Position numbers and translations under genes: made by a program
In this document: positions 6,499 to 39,044 of the stretch, piece by piece
Position numbering within the stretch: position 1 is the first letter of the stretch
How the letters are laid out: each line of letters begins with the position of its first letter
NCBI GenBank assembly: GCA_964650645.1
Contig: CAZYUH010000001.1
Coordinates: 411,032 to 475,031, forward strand
Source: an uncultured Candidatus Saccharibacteria bacterium
Lineage (GTDB): Bacteria; Patescibacteriota; Minisyncoccia; Phycocordibacterales; SBAW01
DNA: 64,000 bases
Direction of reading: 5' to 3'
Notes under the pieces: generated by a model
Seen by the model: only the letters and a program-made list of their open reading frames with translations
Database searches by the model: none
Told to the model about the DNA's origin: nothing

Positions 6499-6504
6499 TA
6501 GTAT
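6499..6504 (+). promoter_or_regulatory. -10-like box (GGTAGTAT) 6 nt upstream of secA ATG
   Basis: gtggtagtatcatgccATG; no SD; suggests leaderless or very short leader. Confidence 0.4.
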
Positions 6505-6510
6505 CATGCC

Positions 6511-25900: not shown

Positions 25901-28900
25901 GAACTTCATCGCCAACCTCGCGGGCACGTCGAGCGTCGCCTCCATCACGACGCTCCCGAACCTCTCCATACTCTCCTCGCAGGTCTCCGACCTGGCGACG
26001 ACGATCGGCGCCGCGTACCCGTTCGCGCTGGCGGGCAACGCGACCTCGACCCTGACGCAGTTCAATGGAGGCCTCACCGCGTACGCATCCTCGACCATCG
26101 GCAACGGCACCGCGGGCCTCACCGTCTCCGGCAACTCGACCACGACCGGCACCGCGTACTTCGTGGGCAACGTGGGCATCGGTACGACTTCGCCGTTTGC
26201 AGCGCTGTCGGTACAGGGCGCTTCATCGCAAGCCGCCGCGACAAATGCCCCTGTTGCCTTTTCGGTACTTGGCGGTACGGGCTCGACTACGGGCCTGGGA
26301 GGCGCAATTGCCCTTACTGGAGGCACTGGCGGCAATGGCGTTGGTGGTAGTGGCGGAGGCATTTCCCTGACAGGTGGAAATAGCGGAGGAGGCATAGCTT
26401 CTGCGGGAGGAACAGTCGCTCTTTCTGCAGGCAATGGAGGAGGCGCTACTCCCGGCGCCGGCGGCGCTTTGACGATCTCCGGAGGAATAGCTTCAGGAAA
26501 CGCCGGAGGCATCGTAATTAGTTCGGGAAGCGCCAATATTGCCGCATCAAACACCTCCGGCGGAAACATAACCATGATAGCGGGCAACGGCGGCGGTGCA
26601 GGTTCAGTAGGTGCTGGAGGAAGCTTCACTTTTAACAGCGGCAGCGGCAATGTGGGCTCTGCCTCGCAGGCGGCCGGCAGCTTTACCTTTAACGGCGGCA
26701 GCGCCGGAGCCTCTAAGCAGGGAGGCAGCTTTGCCTTTAACGGAGGCGCCGGCTCGACAACCGGCAACGGCGGTGATTTCTCGATTACCGGGGGTACGGG
26801 CGGCAACTCGGCAGGATCGCGCGGCGGCAACATCACTTTGAATCCTGGCGCAGCAGGGACGAGCGGCGCGGTTGGCAATGTGCTGCTGGCAACCTTAAAC
26901 GGCAATGTCGGCATAGGCACCACCAGCCCGTACGCCAAGCTTTCTGTCGCTGGCTCGGTCGTAGCCGCCAGCTTCGTGGGCACCACCACCGCAACCTCTA
27001 CGCTCGGCGGCGGCATGGACATCGCTACCGGCTGCTACGCCATCAACGGAACCTGCCTCTCGGCGGCAAGCCTCGGCGCCTCGACCTTCGCGTACCCGTT
27101 CCCCTCGAACGCGACCTCCACCTCAATCGCGTTCAGCGGCGGGCTGACCGGCACGCTCACGGGCTCCCTGGTGGGCAACGCCTCCACCGCCACGGCGCTG
27201 CAGACCGGCCGCGCGATCAACGGCGTCACCTTCGACGGCACTTCCAACATCACCGTCACCGCGGCGTCCTCGACGCTCCTCGCCAACGACAACACGTTCT
27301 CGGGCACCAACACGTTCAGCAACACCATCAGCGGCTCCATCACCGGCAACGCCGGCACCGTCACCAACGGCGTATACACGACCACGTTCAACGGCCTGTT
27401 CGACAATCGCCTCTCGGCCTCGTCGTCGATCGCGGGCATCACGACGCTGCCGAACCTCTCGCTGCCGGCTTCGCAGGTCACCGGGCTTGCGGCCTACCCG
27501 TTCCCGTCCAACGCCACCACCACGCAGATCGCGTTCAACGGCGGGCTGACGGCGTATGCCTCGACCACTATCGGCAATGGCACCGCGATCGGCGGCCTTA
27601 CCATCAGCGGCGGCGCGACGACGACGGGCACCGCGTACTTCGCGGGCAATGTGGGCATCGGCACCTCTTCTCCCTACCAGGCGCTCTCCGTGGTCGGCAG
27701 CACTACGCTCCAGGCCAATGCTGCGGCGGCTTATTCCTGGACCAACGCCTCGCAGCCGGAGGGCGTGACGCTCCGCATCGGAGCCGATGGCTCTAGCGTA
27801 GCCGGCCTCCTGATACAGGGCTCCAATAGCGGGGCAGGCATAACCGATTACCTGTCCGTATACAATCGCTTCGGCACGAGGCTCTTTGGCGTGACCGATA
27901 GCGGGGTCGGTATCGGAGGCAATACCAGGCTGACCGTCGGCCCGGGCTTTGCATCCGGCGCATCGCTAAACCCGACCGGCGTAAACGACTACAGCATATT
28001 CGGCTCTTCGGCGACAAGCACGCCTGCTCAGCTCATATGGGACGCGCGCCGAGGCACGTTCTACGAAGACAGGACCACCCCGATCCTGCGCTTTGCGGGC
28101 AATGTTGGAGGAGGCAATAGCCCGATTATCGGGGAATCCGTCGGAGGCATAAACATACTCAATGCCAGCACGACGCGCGGACTTTCCTTCGCCAGCTACG
28201 CGTCGAGCACCGGCCAGTTCATCGAGAACTTCCGCATACTCTCGACCGGCAACACCGGCTTCGGCACCTCCAGTCCTTTCGCCAAGCTCGCCGTGCAGGC
28301 CGGCGACGGCGATACGGCGACGACGCTCTTCGCTATCGGCTCTTCGACCGCGAGCGCGACCACCACGCTCTTCTCGGTCTCCAATACCGGCTCGACCACC
28401 ATCCAGAACGGCGTCAACATCGCCGGCGGCTGCTACGCCGTCAACGGCACCTGCCTTTCGGCGGCAACGTTCGGCGCCTCGACCTTCGCCTACCCGTTCC
28501 TCAGCAACGCCACATCGACGACGCTCACGTTCTCGGGAGGACTGCTCGCGACCGCGTCCTCGACCTTCTCGGGCCAGCTCAATCTGGGCGGCACTGCGGC
28601 GAATATCGCGCTCGGCTCCAACTACCTCTCCGGCGACGGCGGCGACGAGGGCGTATTCGTGAACTCCGGCGGCGACGTCGGCATCGGCACCAACGGCCTC
28701 ATTTCAAGCCACGTGCTGACAGTGGCGGGCAACCAGTACCTCTCCGGCGGGCTTGGCGTAGGCGGCGGCAATACGGTGCCGGGTTCGGCGCACATCTACG
28801 GCTCTGCCGGCGATGCGACGTCGCTCACGATTGATGCGCCCAACGCGTCCAGCGCGTCGGCGCTGAACATAAGCGGGCCGTCGAGCGGGAAGGCGTTCGC

Positions 28901-31900
28901 CATTACGGCGACGGGCGAGACCCTGGCGCGCGGCATGTTCTACGTCGACGGCTCGTACGGCATCGGCCCGGGCGGCAACTCGTACTCGCGCGACACGTTC
29001 ATATCGCGCAGCGCGACCAGCACGCTCTTGGTGTCATCGGACATGGCAAGCGGCGCCGCGAACCTCATCGTGACGGGCAACATCGGCGTCGGCACCACCT
29101 CGCCGTACGCGAAGCTCTCGGTGACCGGAGACGCGGTGCTCTCCGGATCGAGCCCGACGCTGACCCTGCACGACACCGGCGGCAACTCGTTCAATACCAT
29201 CCAGAACGCGGGCGGCGGACTGCAATTCAATACCGGGTCGGGCAACAGCATCGTCTTCCAGCAGGCGGGCGTCGAGGCTGCGCGCTTCGTGACGGGCTCG
29301 CGCAATTTCGGCATCGGCACTTCCTCGCCGTCCCAGGCGCTCTCGGTCGCGGGCAACGGCTACGTTTCCGGCGGCTTCGGCATCGGCATGCCTCCGGCAG
29401 CGGCGGGCGGGCTGTACTTCAACCGCGCGGGCAACGACCCGTTCTTCTCGTGGTACGAAAGCGGGGTAAACGTCGGCCAGATACGCGCCGATGCGACCCG
29501 CGGCGGCATCTACTTCGCGGATACGACCGGCGGGACGACGTATTTCCAGGTAAACACCAGCGGAGCCGGGGCGGGCAACGTCGGCGTCGGCACCACCACG
29601 CCGGGCTCCTTGCTCGCCATAGGCAACACCGGCGGCATCAACTTCACGACCGCCACCTCGACCTTCAATACGACCGGCGGCATCAACATCAACTCGGGCT
29701 GCTTTGCCATGAACGGCACCTGCATTACCGCGGGCGGCGGAGGAGGCGTCTCGCTGAGCGCCGCCAATACGTGGACCGCGCTGCAGACCTTCCAGTCCGG
29801 CCTCCTCTCCCAGGCGTCCTCCACCTTCACCGGCGCGCTCACCCTCAGCGGCGGCATCGTCAATTACGCGGCCAACTCGACCTCGACCGTCCCGAACAAC
29901 GCGGCCTACGCGTGGACCATCGCCACCTCCTCGACCGCCCAGCCGCTCTTTGCTATAGACACCACCTCCGGCTCCGAAAGCGTCTCTTTGGGCGCGGCCG
30001 GCGCGGATGTCTACATCGGCGACGCCGGCTCCTCGCCTGATCTCGTGTTCGAGAACAGCGGCACGATAAAGACCGCGAGCGGCGGCACGCTCACGATCGG
30101 CGACGGCTCCGACATCGTCAACTTCGGCGTCAACGTCGGCATCGGCTCGACGACGCCCGGCTCGCTGCTTTCCGTCGGCGACACGAACGGCATCAACTTC
30201 ACGACCGCCACCTCGACCTTCTCCTCCACCGGCGGCATCAACATCGCTTCCGGCTGCTTCGCGGTCAACGGTACGTGCATCACCGGTGGGGGCGGCGGCA
30301 GCTCGGCGTCCTCCACATTGCTCGCTGACTTCAACACCTTCACCAACCTGCAGAGGTTTAACGGCGGCCTGCTCTCGCTCGCGTCCTCGACCATCGGCAA
30401 CGGCAATGCGGGCCTCACCATTTCCGGCAACTCGACCACCACGGGCAACTCGCTGGTCAGCGGCGGGCTCAACGTGGGCACGGTCCCGGTCGCGCCGGTC
30501 ACGGGCGGCATCTACCTCCAGCGCACGACCAATCCGTTCATCTCGTTCTACTACGGCTCGACGCAGGCGGGCCAGCTGCGCGCCAACTCGACGAGCCAGC
30601 TCTCGCTGACCGATCCTACCGGCAACAGCCCGTACCTCTCCATCAACACGTCCGGCGCGGCGGCGGGCAACGTCGGCGTCGGCACCACATCGCCGTTCGC
30701 CAACTTCGCGGTGCAGAAGAACTACGGCTCCACGAACACCACGCTGTTCGCCGTCAGCTCCTCGACCAACAGCGGCGGCACCACGGCGACCACGCTCTTC
30801 AGTGTCGACAGCTCCGGCGTCGCCACGGTGGGCAACGAGTCGGGCGCGGGCGACGCGAACTTCCAGTTCGCCTCCGACGCCAATGCCTGGTCGGTCGGCT
30901 ACAAGTCCTCCGACAAGTCGTTCAACATAGCGTCGTCCACCAACTTCTCGGGCACCGCGGCGCTCTCCATAGCCAAGAACGGCAACGCCACCTTCACGGG
31001 CTCGGGCGGCACCTGCACCATAAACGGCTCGGGCGAGTGCACTTCCGACATCCGCCTCAAGACGGACGTCGCGACGACGACCGGCCAGGACGCGCTCGCG
31101 AAGCTCGCGAAGCTCGACGCCATCACCTACACCTGGTCCGATCCGAAGCTCGACCAGGCGCAGCGCCTCGGCGTCGTCGCCCAGCAGGTGCAGGAGGTGT
31201 TCCCGCAGCTGGTGGGCTCGACGACCGTCAGCTTCATGGGCGTGACCGGCACCTACCTTACTGTCGACTACGGCGGCCTCGCGGCGCCGCTCATCGCCGC
31301 CGTCAACGAGCTCAACCTGCGCACGGGCTTCCTCGCGACGACGACCGCGACCTCCACTCCGGATGAGTTGGCGGACGGCCCGTTCAAGGCCGCGTCCGAT
31401 TGGCTGAAGTCGGCGCTCGCTTCGGGCCTCGACGCCATCCAGGGCGTCGCGGACATCGGCGTGCGCAACGTGGGCGCGGCGATCTACGCGGCGGCGGGCG
31501 CGTTCAACGAGGTGTTCGCGCAGACTATTACCGCCGACACGGTCAAGGCCAAGCAGTTGTGCCTCGAGGATGTCTGCATCACCAAGACTGAGCTCCAGAA
31601 CCTGCTCAACCAGCAGCACTCATCGGGCGGCGGGAGCGGCGGCAACGGCGGCGGGGGAGGGTCGGTGCCGCCGCCGGCGCCCGAACCTGCGGGCCCCGAG
31701 CCGGAGCCGCAGGCGTCGTCCACGCCGGAAACGGCGCCCGAGCCCGAGGCGCCGTCGCCTGGCGAGGCGTCTCCCGGGCCTGAGGCGCCTGCCCCCGAAC
31801 CGGACGCTCCCGCGCCTGAAGCGACTCCGGAGCCCGAACCGGAACCCGAGGATCCTGCTCCGCAGGATGCGCCCGCTCCCGCTCCGGCAAGCGCTCCGGC

Positions 31901-31934
31901 CGCAGGAGGGGAGGGCGGCGCGGTGCAGCCGTAA
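13929..31934 (+). CDS. giant (6001 aa) membrane-anchored fibrous surface protein built from phage tail-fibre-like repeats; contains LVIVD beta-propeller, glycine-rich block and C-terminal intramolecular-chaperone (peptidase S74-like) domain
   Basis: Single uninterrupted ORF; N-terminal HTH-like domain then TM (AAALLISMLLGGAAYASSAAF); about 17 modules beginning AYPFPSNATTT..FNGG; Phage_fiber_2-like motif GNASTATALQTPRTINGVTFDGTSNITVTAASSTLLANNNTFSGTNTF; C-terminal SDIRLKTDV..ITYTW..GVVAQQVQEVFPQLV; Pro/Glu tail. Confidence 0.9.
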   Translation: MTSSKKLFSKTGETLLNARKAAVLLECAPDYVSRLCREGKIEGVRHQGQWYIDPKSLESFRAGRDAARLARSEMLSAERRNESKAFARANGKAEGKPAQGIMSRIPAIPLSRHAAAALLISMLLGGAAYASSAAFSAARAQPEALSASAGRIESPFFSTVSFSFESVWRAIASLFAPSRDVAVAPSMQADRTLAAQPASPAAQPAVVAATTTQTFVTNTYPVVERTIERTVERAVPAQAADLGGFVTYDFLNAQIDGVYRSLSRRGSGGIADFSSLTAADIPALNYLPLTGGTLTGALSVSATSTLAGIALNADCSAYNNGGKLTTDSSGNVVCDNDTAGSGSGTPGGSTGQVQYNDAGDFGGEAGFTYDEGANRLTVSFASTTGITADYASTTNLVVSGVSNALLKTVNGVVVPAVAGTDYQAAGNYATFAYPFPSNATTTSIAFNGGLTGALTGNASTATALQTGRTINGVTFDGTQDITVTAASSTLLANNNTFSGNNTFSNTITGSITGNAGTVTNGVYTTTFGGLFAGQLAGTTTDALAEGSVNKYYTDSLVQSYLNGVDKGFFFSTTSAAYQLSVLDKGYFFSTTSAAYNLSTIDKGYFFSTTSADYLLSGKNYATFAYPFPSNATTTQLALNGGLTAPSATIAYASTTAITATTASTTNLVISGIATGSTQCLQINSSGTVSGTGSACGSGGGGSITQIGPAGQMQSGTSITLATSTSGSDFTITAAADTITFNFPIASASNTGKLTAADWSTFNDKISSTSLSAGAGIAYNPATGVITNTIGYPFPSNATTTSIAFNGGLTGTLTGSLVGNASTATALQTPRTINGVTFDGTSNITVTAASSTLLANNNTFSGTNTFSNTITGSITGNAGTVTNGVYTTTFNSLFDPRFASSFAGTTTDALAEGSTNLYYTQARATANFIANLAGTSSVASITTLPNLSLPSSQVTGLFAYPFPSNATTTQLAFNGGATFAGATTTALAVTGSTTVSSTLNVGGVINASGGVIGNVTGSLVGNASTATALETPRTINGVTFDGTQDITVAAASSTLLTDNNTFSGKTLLANATTTNLAVTGVTSSLLKTLSNGAVVAAVAGTDYVANTSGDWTGTFDGQEGSYYLNAANLANFGVPFYNFFSATTTSALAEGSNLYYTDERVDDRVGALLQAGSGVNLTYDDGSDTLTISATGGGGGGTDVNWTYFNGSTIRPATSTNQVLVGGTSTSTLVSPFAKLGVLGGASIDYASTTGITASYASTTDLVISGIPNGILKTVNGVVTAATAGVDYLTSGSSFAYPFPSNATTTQLAFNGGATFAGATTTALAVTGSTTVSSTLNVGGVINANGGVIGNVTGSLTGNASTATALQTPRTINGVTFDGTSNITVTAASSTLLANNNTFSGTNTFSNTITGSITGNAGTVTNGVYTTTFGGLFAGQLAGTTTDALAEGSANLYYTQARATANFIANLAGTSSVASITTLPNLSLPSSQVTGLFAYPFPSNATTTQLAFNGGLSATTITADAATSTSLFGGRVTGSTASFGATATSSFSSAGALTLANLSNAVLAVNAQGQVVATSSIGMSQLTGTLGVPNGGTGSTTLGGLLIGNGTGAIASAAVTGPLSFSGTTLSIAQATGAQSGYLSSADWSTFNGKVSSSSLSSANGYLTYNGSTGVFTASTSPTYAAATSTAFRTTSLTIGTLTGLLKASSGAVAAAVAGTDYENPLTFSYPLQRTVNAVSLAFGTTTSNTWAGTQTFTNAPRLGTLTGLVGANNGTLYQISTSTSFVTSLTAGAGISLSGATGAVTVTNAIGYPFPSNATTTQIAFNGGATFAGATTTALAVTGSTTVSGVLNAGGVVNANGGVTAAGASTIASTTLTGRTLLSNATSSSIYTPVLGVNGEYFTNLTGAGLQNVGGALTLDTAGDWTGTFDGQEGSYYLANSFSTTSAAYFSSLGLAFSTTSSDYWLSQKTTGNLAEGSNLYFTNARADARIAAATSTVRGMVSASGPLSYNSSTGIFSIFQAGAGQDGYLSSADWSAFNGKLSSSSIDTSTELASLIGDETGTGALVFGTGATLASTTLSGSTLLSNATTTNLAITGVTSSLLKTLANGAVVPAVAGSDYLTSATIYQYPFPNNATSTLIAFNGGITAAASTLSSTTLSGSTLLSNATTTSLGFSGLASTLLKTNAQGTVVAANAGTDYENPLTFSTGLSRIGDVVSNSGVTSATGTLNQISVSANTGNITFSLPSLVNLTNLTVAAATTTNSFTSGALSASTARFGSTATTTIDAAGNLAVAGTFDGAGLASCSGTADKLLWNAGVFSCGVDSGSGGGTSEINWTWFNGSAVRVSTSTNQVLIGTNATSTLAKLEVVGGVFTDNATSTASLFGGRITGNSAAFGTTASTTIDALGNVGIGSTTPSARLAVVGGNILQTASGDPKLVASSALGHRTYATAVSGRYAYVANETGGLRILDISNPAAPVVTGSFAYNGGSSAAISIAVAGQYAYVGDNAIGLVIIDVSNPAAPSVVSTSAIVNDPWNLALSGKYLYVADGNAKALKIIDVSNPAAPVVAGSFVSGGSTQPQAVAVAGKYAYMSDASLGNIYIVDISNPTAPALTATYASGGSPMSLYASGKYLYVADLVNGFYSLNVSNPNATPTLVGSYAGSHYGVAVAGQYAYIANDAGHELTVLDLANQSSPALVGGVDVGDEALGITMAGKYAFIAANLNGLAVVDVNGASFPAANIASLQSGMANIADALTVGGNIYAGGGLDVGVSGIYSRGTIAAYVASSTELNPVVATFMGGNVGIGTTSPFAKLSVGGSGFFGGSLTASSITASTSASLASTTLVGNTLLSNATTTSFAISGISGALLKTLANGAVVPAVAGTDYASPSDIFAYPFPSNATTTQLAFNGGLSATTITANAATSTSLFSGRVTGNTASFGATATSSFSSNGTLSLAGLSSALLSTDASGAVVATTTLSTNYLFGHLGFINGVAFSAGGSSIITAASSTLLANNNTFSGTNTFSNIITGSVSGNAGTATALQTPRTINGVTFDGTGNIVITAASSTLLANNNTFSGTNIFSNTINGSITGNAGTVTNGVYTTTFGGLFAGQLAGTTTDALAEGSANLYYTQARATANFIANLAGTSSVASITTLPNLSLPSSQVTGLFAYPFPSNATTTSIAFNGGLTGTLTGSLVGNASTATALQTPRTINGVTFDGTSNITVTAASSTLLANNNTFSGTNTFSNTINGSITGNAGTVTNGVYTTTFNSLFDPRFVTQLAATSSIASITTLPNLSLPYSQLTGTPAIAGYPFAGAGNSTSTLTQFNGGLTAYASSTIGNGTATGGLTVSGNATTTGNAYIAGNLTAAGTVAANGVSTAMIRDASSVSALDIANRRLLDSGTVNALDFSSASSIKLTQYTSNGFLKTSGGNGTLSVDTTISTSGGNVGIGTTSPYAKLSVAGQVVAASFVGTTTATSTLGGGMNIASGCYAVNGTCLSAASLGASTFAYPFPSNATTTQIAFNGGATFAGATTTALAVTGSTTVSSVLNVGGVINANGGITAGTYNASGASSTVLSLSGQALLSASSTTSSVFLGLNSGALNQSTGVYNSGLGAGALASNTTGTRNSAFGFATLVSNTSGAGNTAAGFQSMQSNTVGINNSAFGYNSLATNSYGVYNTAVGSHSLFANTSGVYNTASGYASLVFNSYGTFNSAFGSQALYNNGSGSYNSAFGYFAGKTNTVGTSTTLVGSFSDVAANNLSTSTAIGAGAVVSASNSLVLGGLGQSSVLAGVGTTTPFARFSIQANPTDSVPNAMLFAIGSSTASATTTLFSVSNTGSTTAQNGINIANGCYAVNGACLSAATFGASTFAYPFPSNATTTSIAFNGGLTGTLTGSLVGNASTATALQTPRTINGVTFDGTGNIVITAASSTLLANNNTFSGTNTFSNTISGSITGNAGTVTNGVYTTTFGGLFAGQLAGTTTDALAEGSANLYYTQARATANFIANLAGTSSVASITTLPNLSILSSQVSDLATTIGAAYPFALAGNATSTLTQFNGGLTAYASSTIGNGTAGLTVSGNSTTTGTAYFVGNVGIGTTSPFAALSVQGASSQAAATNAPVAFSVLGGTGSTTGLGGAIALTGGTGGNGVGGSGGGISLTGGNSGGGIASAGGTVALSAGNGGGATPGAGGALTISGGIASGNAGGIVISSGSANIAASNTSGGNITMIAGNGGGAGSVGAGGSFTFNSGSGNVGSASQAAGSFTFNGGSAGASKQGGSFAFNGGAGSTTGNGGDFSITGGTGGNSAGSRGGNITLNPGAAGTSGAVGNVLLATLNGNVGIGTTSPYAKLSVAGSVVAASFVGTTTATSTLGGGMDIATGCYAINGTCLSAASLGASTFAYPFPSNATSTSIAFSGGLTGTLTGSLVGNASTATALQTGRAINGVTFDGTSNITVTAASSTLLANDNTFSGTNTFSNTISGSITGNAGTVTNGVYTTTFNGLFDNRLSASSSIAGITTLPNLSLPASQVTGLAAYPFPSNATTTQIAFNGGLTAYASTTIGNGTAIGGLTISGGATTTGTAYFAGNVGIGTSSPYQALSVVGSTTLQANAAAAYSWTNASQPEGVTLRIGADGSSVAGLLIQGSNSGAGITDYLSVYNRFGTRLFGVTDSGVGIGGNTRLTVGPGFASGASLNPTGVNDYSIFGSSATSTPAQLIWDARRGTFYEDRTTPILRFAGNVGGGNSPIIGESVGGINILNASTTRGLSFASYASSTGQFIENFRILSTGNTGFGTSSPFAKLAVQAGDGDTATTLFAIGSSTASATTTLFSVSNTGSTTIQNGVNIAGGCYAVNGTCLSAATFGASTFAYPFLSNATSTTLTFSGGLLATASSTFSGQLNLGGTAANIALGSNYLSGDGGDEGVFVNSGGDVGIGTNGLISSHVLTVAGNQYLSGGLGVGGGNTVPGSAHIYGSAGDATSLTIDAPNASSASALNISGPSSGKAFAITATGETLARGMFYVDGSYGIGPGGNSYSRDTFISRSATSTLLVSSDMASGAANLIVTGNIGVGTTSPYAKLSVTGDAVLSGSSPTLTLHDTGGNSFNTIQNAGGGLQFNTGSGNSIVFQQAGVEAARFVTGSRNFGIGTSSPSQALSVAGNGYVSGGFGIGMPPAAAGGLYFNRAGNDPFFSWYESGVNVGQIRADATRGGIYFADTTGGTTYFQVNTSGAGAGNVGVGTTTPGSLLAIGNTGGINFTTATSTFNTTGGININSGCFAMNGTCITAGGGGGVSLSAANTWTALQTFQSGLLSQASSTFTGALTLSGGIVNYAANSTSTVPNNAAYAWTIATSSTAQPLFAIDTTSGSESVSLGAAGADVYIGDAGSSPDLVFENSGTIKTASGGTLTIGDGSDIVNFGVNVGIGSTTPGSLLSVGDTNGINFTTATSTFSSTGGINIASGCFAVNGTCITGGGGGSSASSTLLADFNTFTNLQRFNGGLLSLASSTIGNGNAGLTISGNSTTTGNSLVSGGLNVGTVPVAPVTGGIYLQRTTNPFISFYYGSTQAGQLRANSTSQLSLTDPTGNSPYLSINTSGAAAGNVGVGTTSPFANFAVQKNYGSTNTTLFAVSSSTNSGGTTATTLFSVDSSGVATVGNESGAGDANFQFASDANAWSVGYKSSDKSFNIASSTNFSGTAALSIAKNGNATFTGSGGTCTINGSGECTSDIRLKTDVATTTGQDALAKLAKLDAITYTWSDPKLDQAQRLGVVAQQVQEVFPQLVGSTTVSFMGVTGTYLTVDYGGLAAPLIAAVNELNLRTGFLATTTATSTPDELADGPFKAASDWLKSALASGLDAIQGVADIGVRNVGAAIYAAAGAFNEVFAQTITADTVKAKQLCLEDVCITKTELQNLLNQQHSSGGGSGGNGGGGGSVPPPAPEPAGPEPEPQASSTPETAPEPEAPSPGEASPGPEAPAPEPDAPAPEATPEPEPEPEDPAPQDAPAPAPASAPAAGGEGGAVQP
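21220..22150 (+). other. LVIVD-repeat beta-propeller segment inside the giant ORF
   Basis: Six to eight repeats such as YAYVANETGGLRILDISNPAAPVV, YAYVGDNAIGLVIIDVSNPAAPSV, YLYVADGNAKALKIIDVSNPAAPVV, YAFIAANLNGLAVVDVNGAS. Confidence 0.7.
26220..26900 (+). other. glycine-rich block (GGxGG-type, not collagen Gly-X-Y) inside the giant ORF
   Basis: GGAIALTGGTGGNGVGGSGGGISLTGGNSGGGIASAGGTVALSAGNGGGATPGAGGALTISGG... Confidence 0.8.
31010..31330 (+). other. intramolecular chaperone autoproteolytic domain (peptidase S74 / tail-spike C-terminal chaperone-like)
   Basis: TCTINGSGECTSDIRLKTDVATTTGQDALAKLAKLDAITYTWSDPKLDQAQRLGVVAQQVQEVFPQLVG..TVDYGGLAAPLIAAVNELN (S-D-x-R-L-K and IAQEV-like motifs). Confidence 0.7.
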
Positions 31935-31960
31935 CACGATGTCATAAAAGAGCCCGATGG

Positions 31961-31966
31961 TATAAT
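31961..31966 (+). promoter_or_regulatory. TATAAT -10 box 8 nt upstream of ATG (leaderless-type); conserved element shared with the 34484 paralog
   Basis: cgatggTATAATcgggcgtaATGaagcgg vs cgatgaTATAATcggcgttaATGaggtgg at 34470-34475. Confidence 0.45.
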
Positions 31967-31974
31967 CGGGCGTA

Positions 31975-33861
31975 ATGAAGCGGCATTCTTGTTTCAATGC
32001 GGGTACGCGCCTGGGCACTCGGCACGGCATAAAAAGAATCCTCCCGCTGTTCGGTGTTGCGGCATTTTTTGCCGTGTTCCTTGTGGCGCCCCACTCGGCG
32101 CAAGCAGCGCTTTCCTATGTCGGCTCCGCAGAAGGGAGCGGCATAAATACTACGGTTAATGTGAGCCTCACAGGTCTTTCTTTGCAACAGGGCGATCTGG
32201 TAATCGTCTTGAACGGATGGGGGGAGACCTCGAACGGTGATCCTGGCGTGGGTACGTCTGGATATACCGAGGTGGCTGATCTGTATGCGAATGATTCTGT
32301 TGATGCCAACCTTTCCGTCAGCTGGAAGATCATGGGTGCGTCGCCCGATTCGTCCGTGTCCTGCAACTCAAACGGCACGACATTCGGCGCATCGGCGTGC
32401 CTGGTGCACGTATGGCGCGGGGCGGACGCGACAGTGCCCATGGATGTGACTCCCACTACGGCTACAGGTGTCGACTCGGCCGTCTTCGACAGCCCTTCCA
32501 TTACGCCGGTAACTGCGGGAGCGGTCGTGCTTACGCTCGGCTTGAGCACCGCCACGGGCGCCAGCGGGGACTCGTCGATAACCGCTCCGTCGGGGTATTC
32601 CAATCAGGCCGATATAAATGCAAACGGAAACACGAGGTCATCCCAATCCGGCATCGCATCCAAGGCGTGGAGCGGCTCAGGTGCCGAGAACCCGGGCGCG
32701 TGGAGCAATATAACCACTGACACATTCAATTCCTGGGCTGCTGTTACGCTCGCTATACGCCCCGCTGCCGGACCGGGAGGGGGCGGGACCATATTCCTCA
32801 CGTCGGGCACGACGTGGCAGGTGCCTTCCGATTGGGATTCTTCTAATAACACCATAGAGGTTATAGGCGGCGGGGGAGGCGGAGATACCCCGAGCGACAC
32901 GGTCTATTCCGCGGGCGGCGGCGGCGGCGCATACTCGAAAATCACGAACGCGACGCTTACGCCCGGCGCGACAGTCGCCATTGCTGTGGGTGCCGGCGGG
33001 TCGGGCGGTACTACTCCGACTGCCGGCGGCGACACGTACCTGTGCAACTCGCCCAGCAACTGCGCGACCATTGGCGGCAGCGCGGTCATCGTCGGCGCGA
33101 AAGGCGGCGGCGCGCCTACCGGGTCCGGGTTCCCGACCGGCGGTGCCGGGGGTGCTGCGGCCAGCGGAGTGGGGACGGTCAAGAACTCGGGCGGCGCAGG
33201 CGGCACGTCTTCGTTAGGCAACCCGGGCTCCGGCGGCGGCGGCGCAGGCGGGCCGCGGGGCGCGGGCGGCGCGGGTGCGGATGACGCCAATACCACGGGC
33301 TCCGGAGGCGGCGGCGGCGGCGGCGCGGGCGGCGGCGGGTCCGGAACGAATGGCGCGGCCGGTACGGCTGCCGCAAATAGCTTAGGCGGCGCAGGCGGCG
33401 CAGGCGGCAACAATGCCGCGGGAGCGGGCTCCGGCGGCGCCGGTACGGCTAGCGGAGGAACGGGATCTGCGGGTACGGCCGGAGGAGGCGGCGGAGGAGG
33501 CGGCGGAAAAAACGGAACGAATGCCGGAGCCGGAGGCGCCGGAGGCGCTGGTACGGACTGGGACGCGACGCATGGTGCGGGCGGCGGAGGCGGAGGAGGC
33601 GGAGGCAGCAACGACGCTACCGTCAATGGTTCGGCGACCGGCGGCGCCGGCGGCCTGTACGGCGGCGGAGGAGGCGGAGGCGGCGGAACGTCCGCAGGCA
33701 ACGGCACCAACGGCGCGGGCGGCAACGGCGCGCAGGGGATCATCGTCATCACCTACACGGCAGCAGGAGGCGGGTCCGGCACGCCCTCGCGCCGCATGCG
33801 GCTCTTCGAAGGATTCAAAATAAAGCTCATTAGCGGCAAGATAAAAGTGCTCCCGATATGA
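31975..33861 (+). CDS. secreted glycine-rich protein (TSGTxW..IEVIGGGGGG / GIIVITYT family)
   Basis: Signal peptide ..FFAVFLVAPHSAQA; module IFLTSGTTWQVPSDWDSSNNTIEVIGGGGGGD..GGDTYLCNSPSNCATIGGSAVIVGAKGGG..long GGxGG tracts..GIIVITYT. Confidence 0.8.
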   Translation: MKRHSCFNAGTRLGTRHGIKRILPLFGVAAFFAVFLVAPHSAQAALSYVGSAEGSGINTTVNVSLTGLSLQQGDLVIVLNGWGETSNGDPGVGTSGYTEVADLYANDSVDANLSVSWKIMGASPDSSVSCNSNGTTFGASACLVHVWRGADATVPMDVTPTTATGVDSAVFDSPSITPVTAGAVVLTLGLSTATGASGDSSITAPSGYSNQADINANGNTRSSQSGIASKAWSGSGAENPGAWSNITTDTFNSWAAVTLAIRPAAGPGGGGTIFLTSGTTWQVPSDWDSSNNTIEVIGGGGGGDTPSDTVYSAGGGGGAYSKITNATLTPGATVAIAVGAGGSGGTTPTAGGDTYLCNSPSNCATIGGSAVIVGAKGGGAPTGSGFPTGGAGGAAASGVGTVKNSGGAGGTSSLGNPGSGGGGAGGPRGAGGAGADDANTTGSGGGGGGGAGGGGSGTNGAAGTAAANSLGGAGGAGGNNAAGAGSGGAGTASGGTGSAGTAGGGGGGGGGKNGTNAGAGGAGGAGTDWDATHGAGGGGGGGGGSNDATVNGSATGGAGGLYGGGGGGGGGTSAGNGTNGAGGNGAQGIIVITYTAAGGGSGTPSRRMRLFEGFKIKLISGKIKVLPI

Positions 33862-34454
33862 GCAGGGGCGCATGGATAGCCGCTTCGTGCGTTGCCCTGT
33901 GTATCGCGGCGGCGGCATGGGCGTTCTTTGGCGCGCCGGGAGCGCCGCGCATTTTTTTACCGGGCGGCGCAGGCGGCGAACCGGCGCCCGGCTTTGCAAT
34001 GGCAAGCGGGACAGACGCAAGCGCCGGGCCGCTCAAGCCGCCGCGCACGCCGCCGGCGGGACAGAAGGAGCTGTACAATGAAAAATATCGGTTCTCGCTC
34101 TTTTATCCGGACACCCTTTCCTTAAAAGCCTACGACGAAGGGGGCGGGGCGTCGACTATCGCGCTCCAGAGCGTCGCGCGCGCGGAAGGATTCCAAATAT
34201 TCGTCGTGCCCTACCGGGGCGCGCAAGTGAGCATGGAGCGGTTCAGGCGCGACGTGCCGTCAGGGGTCATGCGGGAGCCTCTTGATACAACCATAGACGG
34301 CGCGACGGCGACGAGCTTCTACAGCGCCAACGCCGCGCTGGGCGACACGGCCGAGATATGGTTCATTCATGGCGGCTACCTGTTCGAGGTGACCGCGCCC
34401 AAATCGCAGGCGGCATGGCTCTCGGATATCATGAAAACCTGGCAGTTCATATAA
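33858..34454 (+). CDS. small membrane-anchored partner protein, type A (..WQFI C-terminus)
   Basis: ATGA start/stop overlap with upstream gene; N-terminal TM AWIAASCVALCIAAAAWAFF; paralog of 36548 (FYPDTLSLKAYDE.. / IAYPEQLKVTQYEE..; both end W(Q/K)FI). Confidence 0.65.
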   Translation: MSRGAWIAASCVALCIAAAAWAFFGAPGAPRIFLPGGAGGEPAPGFAMASGTDASAGPLKPPRTPPAGQKELYNEKYRFSLFYPDTLSLKAYDEGGGASTIALQSVARAEGFQIFVVPYRGAQVSMERFRRDVPSGVMREPLDTTIDGATATSFYSANAALGDTAEIWFIHGGYLFEVTAPKSQAAWLSDIMKTWQFI

Positions 34455-34469
34455 GGCGGGGCGCGATGA

Positions 34470-34475
34470 TATAAT
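34470..34475 (+). promoter_or_regulatory. TATAAT -10 box 8 nt upstream of ATG
   Basis: gatgaTATAATcggcgttaATG. Confidence 0.45.
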
Positions 34476-34483
34476 CGGCGTTA

Positions 34484-36547
34484 ATGAGGTGGGGCAATGG
34501 CTACATAGGCGCGTTCGTCGCCGCGTGCGCGTGCGCATTCCTCCTGCCTGCCTGTGCGCATGCGGCGACGGTGTTCCTCACGTCGGGCACGTCGTGGAGC
34601 GTGCCGTCCGATTGGGACTCGGCGAGCAACACCATTGAAGTCATAGGCGGCGGCGGGGCGGGAGAAGATATAAACGGCGGAGGCGGCGGAGGAGGCGGCT
34701 ATACCAAGGCAACGAACGTGACGCTGACTCCCGGCTCGACGGTCGCGTATGCTGTCGGCGCGGGCGGGCTCACCAGCAGCGCGAGCGGCGGCGATACGTA
34801 CCTATGCAACAGCACCTCAAACTGCGCCGATATTAACGGCACGGCGGTCGTTGCGGGCGCCCGGGGCGGCGCGGGGTCTGCCGGAACCGGCGGCGGCGCG
34901 GGTGGCGCGCTGGGCGTGCCTGTATCGGGCACGGTGCGCTACGCGGGCGGCGCCGGCGGCGACGGGAATACCGACGGCGAGACCGGCGGCGGAGGAGGCG
35001 GCGCGGGCGGCCCTTTCGGCGGCGGCGCTAATGGCGGCGGCGGCGCGGGCGGCACCGATGACGGAGGCGGAGGCGGAGGCGGCGCCGGCGGCGGCACGAA
35101 CGGCGCCGCCGGAACCGGCCATAGCGGCACGGGCGGCAACGGCGGCGACAACCACAACGGCGCCGGCGGCGGCACGGGCGGCAACAGCGCGTCCGGCGGC
35201 ACGGACGGAGGCGGCGGAGGCGGCAGTTGCCGGTTCGGCGCGGACGGCGGCGGCGGCACCGAGTGGGACGCGACGCACGGCTCGGGCGGCGGCGGAGGCG
35301 GCGGAGGCTACGTCACCGACTGCAGCGGCACCAACAGCTCGGGCGGCGCCGGCGGCCTGTACGGCGGAGGAGGCGGAGGCGGCGGCGAGAATACGGCGAC
35401 CGACAACGGCGGCGCGGGCGCGCAGGGCATTATCGTCATAACGTACACGCCGGCCAGCGCTCCCGTTGGCCGCATCGTGCGCCTGAAGGGCGGCGTGCGG
35501 TTGGTAGGCGGCGTGCGGTTCGGCGGCACCTCGCCCGTCACGACGTACGGCGGGGGCGGAAGTCCGTCGTGCGATGCGGCATTTACCGATATTGGCGGCG
35601 GGCAGTGCCGTCTGTTCGTGACGTCGCTCGCGGCGACCACCTTCAGCGTGCCTCCCAACTGGACCTCGACGAATACCATAGAAACTATCGGCGGCGGCGG
35701 CGGAGGCTCGAACTACCCGACGGGCGGCGGAGGCGGCGCGTATAGCGCGTCCACCAACGTTTCGTTGACGCCGGGCGCGACGGTCGGCCTCAAGGTCGGC
35801 GGAGGCGGCGCGGGCGGGCCTACCGGCGGCTCGTTTACCGCAGGGGGTGCTGGCGGCGACACGTACGTATGCAACTCGACCAGCAACTGCGCGAGCATTG
35901 CGGGCAGCGCGGTCATCGTAGGCGCCAAGGGCGGCGGGGGCGGCGCGACGACCGCCGTCCTGACAAGCGGCGGCGCGTCTGGGAGCGGCGTGGGCGCAAC
36001 CAAGGTAAGCGGCGGCAACTCCCCGGCGCCATCGACCAACGGCTCCGGCGGCGGCGGCGCAGGTGGGCCGCAGGGCGCTGGCGCTGCGGGCGGGCAAAGC
36101 ACTGGCAACGGCGGCGCGGGCGGAGGCGGCAACGGCGGCGGCAGCGCGGGCGCAGGCACGGGTTCTGATAATGGAGGCAACGGAGGCAATAATTTCGGCG
36201 GCACCGGCAGCGGCGCGGGCGGCGTCGCATCGGGCGCTGTGGGCAGTCCGGGCGCCGCAGGTACGAACGGCGGCGGAGGCGGCGGAGGAAGCCGACCTTT
36301 TTCAGACAATAACATCGTCGGCGGCGCCGGAGGCAATGGCACCGAGTGGGACGCGACGCACGGGTCGGGCGGCGGCGGAGGCGGCGCCGGCGGCACGAAC
36401 GCCGCTGGTGTTACGGGCATTTTCGGCGGCGCCGGGGGGCTCTACGGAGGCGGTGGCGGCGCCGGCGGCTACAACACATCCGACGGCATAGGCTTCAAGG
36501 GCGGCGACGGCGGGCAGGGGATTATCGTCATAACCTACACGCTCTAA
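34484..36547 (+). CDS. secreted glycine-rich protein carrying two tandem copies of the TSGTxW..GIIVITYT module
   Basis: Signal peptide ..LLPACAHA; VFLTSGTSWSVPSDWDSASNTIEVIGGGGAG..GAQGIIVITYTP then LFVTSLAATTFSVPPNWTSTNTIETIGGGGGGS..GGQGIIVITYTL. Confidence 0.8.
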   Translation: MRWGNGYIGAFVAACACAFLLPACAHAATVFLTSGTSWSVPSDWDSASNTIEVIGGGGAGEDINGGGGGGGGYTKATNVTLTPGSTVAYAVGAGGLTSSASGGDTYLCNSTSNCADINGTAVVAGARGGAGSAGTGGGAGGALGVPVSGTVRYAGGAGGDGNTDGETGGGGGGAGGPFGGGANGGGGAGGTDDGGGGGGGAGGGTNGAAGTGHSGTGGNGGDNHNGAGGGTGGNSASGGTDGGGGGGSCRFGADGGGGTEWDATHGSGGGGGGGGYVTDCSGTNSSGGAGGLYGGGGGGGGENTATDNGGAGAQGIIVITYTPASAPVGRIVRLKGGVRLVGGVRFGGTSPVTTYGGGGSPSCDAAFTDIGGGQCRLFVTSLAATTFSVPPNWTSTNTIETIGGGGGGSNYPTGGGGGAYSASTNVSLTPGATVGLKVGGGGAGGPTGGSFTAGGAGGDTYVCNSTSNCASIAGSAVIVGAKGGGGGATTAVLTSGGASGSGVGATKVSGGNSPAPSTNGSGGGGAGGPQGAGAAGGQSTGNGGAGGGGNGGGSAGAGTGSDNGGNGGNNFGGTGSGAGGVASGAVGSPGAAGTNGGGGGGGSRPFSDNNIVGGAGGNGTEWDATHGSGGGGGGAGGTNAAGVTGIFGGAGGLYGGGGGAGGYNTSDGIGFKGGDGGQGIIVITYTL

Positions 36548-37114
36548 ATGGCCGCCAAGATCACCGCTTCAATAGCCCTGCTTGCCGCTATCGCGCTCGG
36601 CGGGTACTTCCTTTGGCGCGGCGGCGGCCAGGACGCGGACGCTGCCGCCGCTTCGGCCCGCTTGGCCGTGCCGGACGCGCTTTCCGTAAGCACGCCCGAA
36701 ACCCGCGCTTTGCCCGGCGGCATGCGGCTGTACGAAAGCAAGGCGTTCAAATTTTCCATAGCGTATCCCGAACAGCTGAAGGTGACGCAGTACGAGGAGC
36801 GCGGCAGCGCCATGACGGTTACGTTCGAGAACCCGGACCGCACGCAGGAGTTCGAGGTGTACGTCACGCCCTACGCCAAGGCGCAGATAGACGACGCGCG
36901 CTTCAAGCTCGACCAGCCGTCGGGCCGGTTCCTCGATCCGCAGGACGTGATGGTGGACGGCGCGCGAGCGACGCTCTTTACCGGGTACAACACGATTATG
37001 GGCGACACGCGCGAGGTCTGGTTCATAAAAGACGGCTTTTTATACGAAGTGATGACCTACAAGCCGCTCGACGCGTGGCTGGGGCAGATGATGCAGGGCT
37101 GGAAGTTCATCTAG
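36548..37114 (+). CDS. small membrane-anchored partner protein, type A
   Basis: TAAATG junction with upstream gene; TM ITASIALLAAIALGGYFLW; paralog of 33858. Confidence 0.7.
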   Translation: MAAKITASIALLAAIALGGYFLWRGGGQDADAAAASARLAVPDALSVSTPETRALPGGMRLYESKAFKFSIAYPEQLKVTQYEERGSAMTVTFENPDRTQEFEVYVTPYAKAQIDDARFKLDQPSGRFLDPQDVMVDGARATLFTGYNTIMGDTREVWFIKDGFLYEVMTYKPLDAWLGQMMQGWKFI

Positions 37115-37128
37115 TATCTAGCCCACCC

Positions 37129-37150
37129 GAGCAAGGTTCAACCTTGCTCA
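37129..37150. repeat. REP palindrome copy 1 (centre base C on + strand)
   Basis: gagcaaggttCaaccttgctca; overlaps the RAYT stop codon (the TGA stop is formed by the palindrome centre on the - strand). Confidence 0.85.
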
Positions 37151-37872
37151 CTGCTTTGCGTTTGCATAGGCGGTACACCCTTGCTTTCCTTAAAATCGAG
37201 CCAGTCGTTTATGCTGTTTTCAAAACTCGAGCGCGCGTCGAAATAAGCAGGCAGGCTCTCCTTGTTTAGGATATTCTTTTCTATCCTGTCCCGGCCTGCG
37301 TAGTCAGGGTAGCTTGACGCATCATACGACTGCAGAAATAAGCGGGCGCGTTCCTTGTCGCGGATTCCGGATTCTTTCCATTTCGGCTCGATAAGCTTTA
37401 TGGGATTAAGATGCAGATAAGATACGAGGTATTTTAAATAGCGGTCCTCGTTAGCGTGCTGTGATTTGAACCTTCCTTGGAATAATGCTCCCGAGCGCGC
37501 ATAACGCTTGTTGAAATACATGGTGTACGCCGTAGTGAGCTTTTGCATGAAGCGGCTCGTTCCGCCGCCCTCCCTTTCTTTTAGCAGGAGATGGAAGTGG
37601 TTTGGCATGAGCACGTATGCGCATATGTCGACAAGAGGGGCGCCTCGTTCGCACGCGATAGCTTTTTCGAGCAAGGTTGAACCTTGCTCGCTCCGGCGCA
37701 AATTTTCCATATGAACCGGCGCGATTCCGTTGCAAATATAGAGCAGGGCAACGAATCGTTCGTAATCGGCCTTGCCTTTAAAGACAGTCCTTTTATCCGT
37801 ACCGCGATTGTAAAGATGGTAATATTCTCCCGGCGCAAAAATCATGTTCCGTGACATGGCAGGATAGTACAC
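37138..37872 (-). CDS. REP-associated tyrosine transposase (RAYT / TnpA_REP, HUH Y1 family)
   Basis: HUH motif YVLMPNHFHLLL; catalytic-Tyr motif YLVSYLHLNPIKL; 244 aa; flanking REP hairpins. Confidence 0.85.
   Translation of the reverse strand: MYYPAMSRNMIFAPGEYYHLYNRGTDKRTVFKGKADYERFVALLYICNGIAPVHMENLRRSEQGSTLLEKAIACERGAPLVDICAYVLMPNHFHLLLKEREGGGTSRFMQKLTTAYTMYFNKRYARSGALFQGRFKSQHANEDRYLKYLVSYLHLNPIKLIEPKWKESGIRDKERARLFLQSYDASSYPDYAGRDRIEKNILNKESLPAYFDARSSFENSINDWLDFKESKGVPPMQTQSSEQG
37669..37689. repeat. REP palindrome copy 2, inside the RAYT CDS (encodes EQGSTLL)
   Basis: gagcaaggttGaaccttgctc. Confidence 0.85.
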
Positions 37873-37885
37873 TTTTTGCCCACAT

Positions 37886-37906
37886 GAGCAAGGTTGAACC
37901 TTGCTC
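37886..37906. repeat. REP palindrome copy 3 (centre base G on + strand), between RAYT and gap
   Basis: gagcaaggttGaaccttgctc. Confidence 0.85.
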
Positions 37907-38002
37907 GCGGGGGGGGGTGGGGCGCGATGCGGTGAGGTGGTCGCTATGCGCTGCGGCGTATGGGCAAACGCATAGCCAAACGCATGGGCAAGCGCAGGGT
38001 AT

Positions 38003-38008
38003 ATACTG
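38003..38008 (+). promoter_or_regulatory. -10-like box (GGTATATACT) 7 nt upstream of gap ATG
   Basis: cagggtatatactgtgtacatATG. Confidence 0.4.
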
Positions 38009-38015
38009 TGTACAT

Positions 38016-39044
38016 ATGGCTATACGAGTCGCGATAAACGGGTTCGGACGCATCGGCCGCTGCTTCTTGCGCGCCGCGTGGAACGACCCGCAGGTAGAAG
38101 TGGTGGCGATTAACGATTTAGGCTCATTGGACACGCTTGCGTACCTTTTAACGTACGACAGCGTCTACCGGCGCTTCCCGGGCCAGGTGTCTGTCCAGAA
38201 CGGCGAACTGGTCGTGGGCGCCAAGCATATAAAGGTGGTAAGCGAAAAAGATCCGGCGAAATTGCCGTGGAAGGACCTTAATATCGACGTTGTGGTGGAG
38301 TCCACCGGCTTCTTCACCGATTTTGCAAAGGCAAAGGCGCACCTGACCGCGGGGGCCAAGCGCGTCGTCATATCGGCGCCCGCAAAGGACGGCGCCGACG
38401 AGGCTGGGGTGCCGGTCACGGGCGTCACCGTGCTCATGGGGCTCAACCAGGACAAGCTTGCGAACGTGCAGCTTTCTTCCAATGCTTCATGCACGACCAA
38501 TGCCGCCTCGCCGCTCATCGCGATACTCGACGCGGCGCTCGGCATAGACAAGGCGCTTCTTAATACCACGCACGGCTATACCGCCAGCCAGTCGCTCGTC
38601 GACGGGCCCTCGAAGAAGGATTTAAAAGAGGGGCGCGCCGCCGCGCAGAACATCGTGCCGACCTCGACGGGCGCGGCCATAGCGGTGACGCAGGCGTACC
38701 CGCAGCTGGCAGGGAAATTCGACGGCATTTCCCTGCGCGTGCCGGTGCCGGCGGGCTCTATCGCCGACGTCACGTTCATCGCCAAGCGCGACACGACCGC
38801 CGAGGAGGTCAACAAGCTCCTTATGGATGCGGCATGCTCGCCGCAGTGGCACGGGATATTCGGCGTCACGAAGGACCCGATAGTATCGAGCGACGTCATC
38901 GGCTCGACCTACGGCTCCATAGCAGACCTCAACATGACGCGCGTGATAGGCAACCTGGTAAAGGTGCTCGCGTGGTACGACAACGAGATGGGGTACACCC
39001 ATACGCTGCTGCGGCATGTGAAGCTGGCGGGCGGGCATATATAA
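38016..39044 (+). CDS. gap: glyceraldehyde-3-phosphate dehydrogenase
   Basis: MAIRVAINGFGRIGRCFLRAAW..; catalytic SNASCTTN; the GTG-extended ORF from 37851 runs through the REP and is rejected. Confidence 0.95.
   Translation: MAIRVAINGFGRIGRCFLRAAWNDPQVEVVAINDLGSLDTLAYLLTYDSVYRRFPGQVSVQNGELVVGAKHIKVVSEKDPAKLPWKDLNIDVVVESTGFFTDFAKAKAHLTAGAKRVVISAPAKDGADEAGVPVTGVTVLMGLNQDKLANVQLSSNASCTTNAASPLIAILDAALGIDKALLNTTHGYTASQSLVDGPSKKDLKEGRAAAQNIVPTSTGAAIAVTQAYPQLAGKFDGISLRVPVPAGSIADVTFIAKRDTTAEEVNKLLMDAACSPQWHGIFGVTKDPIVSSDVIGSTYGSIADLNMTRVIGNLVKVLAWYDNEMGYTHTLLRHVKLAGGHI

Follow-up and report, generated by a model that had tools for sequence, protein, structure and literature searches.

A small partner gene goes with a short basic tail motif, and not with a glycine-rich module, in secreted-protein cassettes of Patescibacteria

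The DNA analysed here is a chromosomal stretch of 64,000 nt with ~64% G+C (the window) from a lineage of Patescibacteria (candidate phyla radiation, CPR); the source organism is an uncultured, ultra-small bacterium that is probably symbiotic. The window carries a two-gene cassette twice in tandem, and each cassette consists of a large secreted protein, here called the cargo (A1 and A2), followed by a small partner protein (B1 and B2). The four open reading frames (ORFs), their arrangement as A1-B1 and A2-B2, and the stop/start coupling within each pair, an ATGA overlap at A1/B1 and a TAAATG junction at A2/B2, are as an initial annotation of the locus had described them. That annotation had paired the small protein with a glycine-rich module in the large one. 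We find that the adjacency of large protein and partner stands, but that the linked feature is a different one: the partner goes with a short basic tail on the cargo, a motif of ~20 aa absent from the initial annotation, and not with the glycine-rich module.

The partner gene goes with a basic tail

The initial annotation had made its proposal hinge on whether the large and small genes stay together in related genomes. Profiles of the module and of the partner were run against the ORFs of 45 related loci. Across these loci the adjacency is kept: in nearly all cases a large secreted protein precedes the partner in the same orientation, and the two genes are ~-50 to +25 nt apart. The tail on the cargo alternates hydrophobic and basic residues with GG turns, and it occurs as two types, R(I/V)IRLxGGVRLxGGVRL (type 1) and R(R/K)MRLFEGFKIKxxSGKIxx (type 2).

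For 39 partner genes the upstream ORF could be scored. The module is present in the directly upstream, same-strand ORF of 26 of them. A loose regular expression for the tail, written from instances in the same loci on which it was counted, matches the upstream ORF of 25, compared with 9 of 709 background ORFs. Only 3 of these 9 background matches are real genes, all in the same loci and one gene further away, and inclusion of degenerate tails by eye brings the tailed upstream ORFs to ~33 of 39.

Proteins with only one of the two features separate tail from module. Tailed, module-free proteins are followed by a partner in five loci (L008, L013, L018, L019 and L015), and in two others (L043 and L044) two tailed genes, again module-free, are followed by one partner. 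Module proteins with neither tail nor partner are found in L040, in L041 and in the window itself, where the 870-aa protein encoded at 45873-48485 serves as an internal control because it has the module and lacks both tail and partner.

As a partly independent test, further proteins were chosen from homolog lists according to their tails and located on their contigs; in the first batch, the partner profile was then run on the genes downstream. A partner was found within two genes downstream in 5 of 6 tailed proteins and in 0 of 3 tail-less ones. The partner follows directly in two cases (P0092 and P0072), lies beyond an intervening IS200-like gene in one (P0117), and comes after two tailed genes in two (P0374 and P0322); the sixth tailed protein, P0064, has no partner. 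The three tail-less proteins were P0066, P0067 and P0324, the last in a phage context.

The type of tail also goes with the type of partner. In 31 of 32 cases a partner and its nearest relative come after the same type of tail, and the difference between within-type and between-type partner identity was exceeded in 0 of 2000 permutations. We looked for residues that separate type-1 from type-2 partners and found no alignment column fixed differently at ≥75%. The window fits the proposed arrangement: A1 with its type-2 tail precedes B1, a member of the partner group found after type-2 tails, and A2 with its internal type-1 tail precedes B2; most of the 45 loci do likewise. The features of the window are collected in Table 1.

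Table 1. Positions of the cassette genes, their domains and associated features in the window.
Feature	Position	Strand	Description
Giant fibre-like ORF	13929-31934	+	6001 aa; directly upstream of A1; without module
Promoter-like element 1	31939-31966	+	ATGTCA, 16 nt spacer, TG-extended TATAAT; -10 ends 8 nt before A1 ATG
A1	31975-33861	+	628 aa; signal-peptide-like N-terminus (aa 1-44), N-terminal domain of an unnamed family (aa ~45-265), glycine-rich module, type-2 tail
A1 module	32788-33759	+	aa 272-595; 39% Gly; module HMM domain E 1e-58 and 3.5e-12
A1 type-2 tail RRMRLFEGFKIKLISGKIKV	33790-33849	+	aa 606-625; C-terminal
B1	33858-34454	+	198 aa; partner; N-terminal hydrophobic helix and predicted PsbP-like domain
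Promoter-like element 2	34446-34475	+	TTCATA, 18 nt spacer, TG-extended TATAAT; 8 nt before A2 ATG
A2	34484-36547	+	687 aa; signal-peptide-like N-terminus, module 1, internal type-1 tail, Cys-loop linker, module 2
A2 module 1	34562-35449	+	aa 27-322; 40% Gly; domain E 1e-74; copy used for the structure model
A2 type-1 tail RIVRLKGGVRLVGGVRF	35471-35521	+	aa 330-346; internal, between the modules; low pLDDT in the model
A2 module 2	35606-36541	+	aa 375-686; 38% Gly; domain E 2.9e-64
B2	36548-37114	+	188 aa; partner; predicted transmembrane helix (aa 2-25), flexible linker, PsbP/Mog1-like domain (aa ~46-187)
Module in the 870-aa protein (45873-48485)	47007-47960	+	aa 379-696; E 1e-21; no tail motif, no partner gene

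Sequence properties of the tail

The tail is not confined to the C-terminus. It is internal in A2 and in proteins of L004, L014 and L025, and it is N-terminal in L008. A search for known sorting signals gave no NCBIfam or Pfam match at E≤1 over the tail. We also considered a signal of the LPXTG, PEP-CTERM or GlyGly-CTERM kind and rejected it; A1 and A2 have no second hydrophobic segment, and the motif also occurs internally or N-terminally.

Several large secreted proteins carry a second C-terminal signature, ...V.(V/I).P(E/N/S)(Y/W/F)QE(I/L/Q)-stop, which may be another sorting or docking tag. The window has it as APEYQEI at the end of the 870-aa module protein (48465-48485) and as TPEYQEL (54431-54451) on a Kelch-repeat protein (51794-54451), and in related loci it was seen in L010 (2206-4158), L011 (3462-4898) and L025 (8709-12575). 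The L010 and L011 proteins end in LPNWQEQ and lie directly upstream of a partner gene, in the place of a tailed protein.

The partner is a predicted membrane-anchored PsbP-like protein

B1 and B2 are mutual paralogs, as first annotated, with 40% identity over 136 aa (E 2e-38), and each has a single hydrophobic helix at its N-terminus. The AlphaFold2 (AF2) model of the partner has a mean predicted local distance difference test (pLDDT) score of 90.8 and consists of a helix at aa 2-25, a low-confidence linker and a compact beta-rich domain. In the fold comparison this domain scored highest against BT_1490 (10.6), cyanobacterial PsbP (10.4), TplEi (9.3) and Tsi3 (8.7), followed by LpqN (8.1), RseB (7.4), DcrB (7.0) and SciW (6.6). 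The partner is thus modelled as an N-terminal membrane helix plus a PsbP/Mog1/DcrB-like domain. Sequence identity to the PsbP/Mog1/DcrB/LpqN/Tsi3/TplEi/SciW fold group is 7-16%, and no member of this group is known to pair with tail-tagged secreted proteins. Pfam PsbP_2 (PF18933) reached 17.2 bits against a cut-off of 27; we found no Pfam match above cut-off, no NCBIfam match and no PHROG match. The invariant residues of the partner include the acidic and serine residues E84, D122, S125, E156 and E167, and also W158.

The partner family is large: a library clustered at 50% identity contains 2542 representatives that match at E≤1e-3, of which 403 match at E≤1e-30, and all of the 150 matches listed are ~170-230 aa long. 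Of 32 genome loci with a partner, 31 have a Patescibacteria-type or metagenome-bin label, and the remaining one is a bin labelled Acidobacteriota. The labels include Adlerbacteria, Kaiserbacteria, Paceibacterota, Nomurabacteria, Harrisonbacteria, many Saccharibacteria bins and one Peribacteraceae. A scan of IMG/VR found no partner in viruses, and a fold search of BFVD gave two weak matches only, to phage 'lipoproteins'.

Two known classes of small partner proteins were compared and set aside. Tail-fibre assembly chaperones of the Pam3 gp25/Tfa type do not match the partner, which has a predicted transmembrane helix and a PsbP-like domain and is without relatives in PHROGs or IMG/VR. Immunity proteins of the type VI secretion system, such as Tsi3 and TplEi, share the fold only, and no toxin domain was found in the adjacent A1 or A2. 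A broader version of the latter idea, in which each cassette would be a polymorphic toxin-immunity pair, the large secreted protein acting as toxin and the small PsbP-like protein conferring immunity, is suited by the tandem duplication and by the variability of the upstream proteins. It is nonetheless very improbable: neither A1 nor A2 has a toxin domain in Pfam, NCBIfam or PHROGs, their variable parts are binding-type domains, and the cargo domains vary next to a conserved partner, which can follow two different cargo genes at once.

Proposed recognition of the tail by the partner

We propose that the cargo proteins are exported by Sec, with a receptor-binding-type domain as their working part, and that the partner sits in the membrane with its PsbP-like domain facing outward. 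This domain would recognize the cognate tail, probably by the tail strands joining the partner sheet, and tail binding would keep an otherwise soluble cargo tethered or presented at the cell surface. There the cargo would sit near the giant S74-type fibre encoded upstream, and the assembly would probably serve attachment to other cells. We judge recognition of the tail by the partner, with surface retention of the cargo, to stand at about even chances. What the data show are the predicted folds, the paralogy, the gene order, the association of tail and partner and the match between tail type and partner clade; physical binding, topology, surface retention and the adhesin role are what we infer. 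A1, A2 and the partners would face outward, since the only hydrophobic segment in each of them is N-terminal. In the single-chain model the tail is disordered, and strand addition is plausible for it because its basic and hydrophobic residues alternate in strands with GG turns.

Short portable tags on diverse secreted proteins that are bound by a receptor module on the cell are familiar from dockerin-cohesin pairs. The arrangement proposed here shares that concept; it has no sequence or fold relation to dockerin-cohesin pairs, however, and would use a ~20-aa tag and a single-pass PsbP-like receptor encoded beside the cargo. A wider and more tentative extension, to which we give appreciably less credence, is that the pairs form a Patescibacteria-specific system of non-covalent surface display. 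In such a system two tail types, each with its own clade of single-pass PsbP-like receptors, would present interchangeable phage-type adhesins beside S74 fibres on wall-poor episymbionts, and duplication of the cassette would diversify host attachment.

The foremost alternative is that the partner helps its cargo to fold or assemble outside the cytoplasm, as a dedicated chaperone comparable to the tail-fibre assembly proteins encoded by phages immediately after the fibre gene. It would bind the cargo transiently, perhaps through the tail, and would not remain in the finished surface structure. A precedent is the cyanophage Pam3 fibre protein gp24, for which the smaller chaperone gp25 is needed and binds these domains (PMC9608196). 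The tight cargo-then-partner order, with overlapping or abutting genes, would be expected of such a chaperone. However, the partner accompanies tailed proteins that have no module, and tail-less module proteins go without it. The partner also has no fold or sequence link to fibre chaperones, gp25 being a beta-sandwich plus helical-trimer chaperone and not a membrane-anchored, PsbP-like protein. In general, a permanent membrane anchor would be unusual for a chaperone of this kind. We therefore consider a chaperone role unlikely. Given that the tail can be internal or N-terminal and that one partner can follow two cargo genes, a recognition tag fits better than either a cleaved sorting signal or a chaperone of the glycine fold.

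Alternatively, the tail could bind the envelope directly, through anionic wall polymers or the membrane surface, and the partner would act in processing, export quality control or sensing and not as a tether. The tail is strongly basic and amphipathic, as this would demand, and the invariant acidic and serine residues of the partner could form an active or ligand-binding site. The agreement between partner clade and tail type speaks against it and makes direct recognition of the tail the easier reading, so that we hold envelope binding to be improbable.

Several observations weigh against recognition of the tail by the partner. One locus, L037 (from the same look-up as P0064), encodes a tailed protein without a partner, and three-frame translation of its downstream sequence revealed no frameshifted partner. 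Partners in L010, L011 and L028 (8847) follow a gene that lacks both tail and module, and in L016 the upstream gene has the module and no tail. The occasional internal or N-terminal position of the tail suits a binding element and not a simple C-terminal anchor signal. The enrichment of the tail is partly circular because the regular expression was derived from the counted loci, and the follow-up set is small (6 tailed and 3 tail-less proteins). Joint inheritance of the two genes could also explain why the partner clade agrees with the tail type. Finally, hydropathy and sequence were the sole basis for assigning signal peptides and membrane topology.

We found no description of a pairing between a PsbP-like partner and a basic tail in Pfam, NCBIfam, PHROGs or the literature searched (PF21722; Patescibacteria with glycine-rich/tail fiber and with PsbP; CPR giant adhesins). 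What is new is a large, uncharacterised family of predicted anchored PsbP-like proteins that is almost restricted to Patescibacteria-type bins and goes with a short basic tail, carried by secreted proteins that are otherwise unrelated to each other. The pairing suggests a mode of protein retention at the cell surface that has not been described before. If the partner is the tail receptor, this would explain how reduced episymbionts keep adhesins on the cell, and the tail would provide a sequence rule for predicting their surface proteome. Tail-partner pairs would also offer a handle on host-attachment factors, which could then be tested in bacteria that are extremely difficult to grow in culture.

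The glycine-rich module

The module spans ~300 aa, from a (F/Y)LTSGTxWxVPxDW strand to a GIIVITYT strand, and was searched with a profile hidden Markov model (HMM) built from 39 sequences; the copies are 38-40% glycine. The paralogy of A1 and A2 extends beyond glycine composition, with composition-adjusted BLASTP giving 66% identity over 98 non-low-complexity residues (E 2e-28), and at the DNA level the non-repetitive strand segments are 79-93% identical. As first described, A2 contains the whole module twice, each copy ending in GIIVITYT, and the 870-aa protein contains it once. Two details of the initial annotation did not hold. It had placed the conserved strand right after the signal peptide in each large protein; in A1 a separate domain of ~220 aa (aa ~45-265) intervenes. 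It had also placed a module copy in the giant ORF upstream of A1, at 26220-26900, where all domain scores of the module HMM were negative with filters off. We rejected a module there, the TSGT..VP, GGDTY and ITYT strands being absent. By eye this stretch (GGAIALTGGTGGNG..GGNITMIAGNGGG..) is a different GGxhxhxGG-type repeat that resembles a short beta-helix-type repeat.

The idea that the module is a shuffled building block is borne out by its homologs, which combine it with pilin-like N-termini, phage-type N-termini without a signal peptide, a conserved C-terminal domain or Ig-like domains. The 'surface apparatus' to which the initial annotation assigned the module is a putative one.

The A1 N-terminal domain (32107-32769) belongs to an unnamed family of its own with 334 matches, mostly stand-alone proteins of ~240 aa ending in ...WAAVTLALRPA, and has no Pfam model. 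Most members have no tail. Some are in phage contexts, at least one beside a phage capsid gene (L045), and a few versions of ~380 aa carry a type-2 tail and are then followed by a partner gene.

Against a cut-off of 24.3 bits, Pfam PF21722 (Gly_rich_2) scores 23.9 bits for A1 (E 5e-05) and 18.6 bits for A2 (E 0.002); both alignments span profile positions 4-220 of 226, and many close homologs have a precomputed PF21722 assignment. The AF2 model of A2 module 1 has a pLDDT of 90.1 and a predicted template modelling (pTM) score of 0.88. In the fold comparison it scored 17.8 against the Pam3 tail fibre (7ypx_A; 37% identity over 179 residues), 14.4 against gp33 (tail wing brush) and 10.3 against gp29 (tail spike) of mycobacteriophage Bxb1, and 6.9-7.3 against the glycine-rich domains of ALK. 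The sequence profile reaches the Pam3 fibre at E 2.5e-10, from the first strand through the final GIIVITY-like strand. The likeness to actinophage tail proteins that the initial annotation had pointed to is thus confirmed by Bxb1 gp33 and gp29.

The distal end of the Pam3 fibre combines a TNF-like sandwich with a glycine-rich domain of stacked extended loops and has been proposed to recognize the host receptor (PMC9608196). The same kind of polyproline-II/polyglycine bundle was described in 2026 in Bxb1 gp33 and gp29 and in gp38 of phage S16 (PMC13243192). The module groups with the TNF-like plus glycine-rich (polyglycine-II) domains of the Pam3 gp24 type, and its model predicts a TNF-like beta-sandwich with a projecting lattice of polyglycine-II helices, a domain of the receptor-binding type. 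The module thus represents a type of binding domain that has already been described in phage fibres and in ALK receptors; its occurrence in secreted cellular proteins of CPR bacteria is a new context and not a new fold.

The proteins that carry the domain differ in other respects. Pam3 gp24 (PDB 7YPX/7YFW) has the same glycine content, ~39%. However, it has an alpha-helical shaft that docks to the baseplate and no tail motif, whereas A1 and A2 begin with predicted signal peptides and are encoded by cell-chromosomal genes, and the partner here tracks the tail motif. Bxb1 gp33 and gp29 (PDB 9D93) and the gp38 adhesin of Salmonella phage S16 are virion proteins without a signal peptide, basic tail or PsbP-like partner. 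The glycine-rich domain of ALK/LTK (PDB 7LRZ, 7LS0, 7NX3, 7LIR) belongs to animal receptor tyrosine kinases, with a much weaker structural likeness and an unrelated context.

Such relatives raise the question of a phage origin. A1 and A2 themselves are not tail-fibre virion proteins; they have signal-peptide-like starts and lie among GAPDH, transketolase and SecA genes. A PHROG scan gave no family match apart from one weak match of unknown function. The cassettes could still be a prophage remnant or a domesticated tail-fibre module, with the partner as a phage accessory protein. The module and the A1 N-terminal domain do have phage relatives (Pam3, Bxb1, and L045 with its phage capsid gene), the giant ORF upstream carries the Peptidase_S74 tail-fibre chaperone domain, and an IS200-like gene flanks the cassette. 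We regard this as quite improbable, however, in view of the housekeeping genes on the flanks, a position upstream of GAPDH that is kept in distant relatives, the predicted signal peptides of the cargo in place of baseplate-docking N-termini, a window in which no other phage structural genes were seen, and the absence of the partner from IMG/VR. Since the partner loci are also labelled as Patescibacteria-type or metagenome bins in all but one case and remain syntenic with the genes for GAPDH and the pentose-phosphate pathway, we read the tail-partner system as cellular and not viral.

Promoter-like elements of the cassettes

The promoter-like element that had been noticed before both cassettes is real: the exact sequence GATGRTATAATCGG occurs at 31956 and 34465 and nowhere else in the window, and the pattern TATAAT-N8-ATG is found only at the A1 and A2 starts in the 64 kb. 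Both are the best sigma-70-like sites of the region, with 10 of 12 matching positions and an extended -10 TG. We found no Shine-Dalgarno-like sequence ahead of the cassette gene starts (31961-31977 and 34470-34486). The A1 and A2 mRNAs would be leaderless because the -10 box ends 8 nt before the ATG. Hexamers resembling a -10 box also lie 6-9 nt ahead of the ATG of cassette genes in six related loci (L005, L008, L009, L013, L015 and L026), a spacing that suggests leaderless mRNAs for cassette genes in several lineages.

Locus and neighbouring genes

Housekeeping genes flank the cassettes on both sides and encode SecA, Obg, GatB, GAPDH, ribulose-phosphate epimerase, a split transketolase and fructose-bisphosphate aldolase; one tRNA is the sole structured RNA detected in the window. 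The order of the cassette upstream of GAPDH and pentose-phosphate genes is kept in some relatives, distant ones included, and L004 has the same tandem cassette arrangement as the window. A type IV pilin-like gene with an N_methyl motif (40381-40959) lies between ribulose-phosphate epimerase and the split transketolase, with the same placement in the syntenic L004.

The giant ORF begins with an HTH_17 domain (aa 15-63) followed by a single hydrophobic segment (aa ~117-135), continues through thousands of residues of threonine/serine/alanine-rich repeats, and has Peptidase_S74 near its C-terminus (nt ~31044-31214; 52 bits, cut-off 22). Peptidase_S74 acts as intramolecular chaperone in tail fibres of the endosialidase type. 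It is odd for a giant fibre to carry a helix-turn-helix at its cytoplasmic end, and the gene preceding the giant ORF (12629-13501) has a weak HTH_17 match too. Fibre-like or S74 genes are also found upstream of the cassette in L002, L004, L005, L042 and L043.

Directly after B2 lies a gene for an IS200-like Y1 transposase (37138-37872, minus strand). In L042 an IS200-like gene (6038-6661) is located between a tailed module protein and its partner, and in L044 another is near the cassette (1507-2178); the cassettes may be a recurrent insertion target, or the element may simply be abundant. The listed GAPDH ORF (37851-39044) overlaps the transposase gene through a GTG start that adds ~57 residues. 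Its true start is probably near 38016, because the Pfam NAD-binding domain of GAPDH begins only at residue 58 (MAIRVAINGFGRIGR). Long proline- or arginine-rich antisense or out-of-frame ORFs cover the glycine-rich genes on the minus strand (29034-31619, 32904-33752, 34817-36097 and 35713-36420); given GGC-rich coding sequence at high G+C, these are a by-product and not genes.

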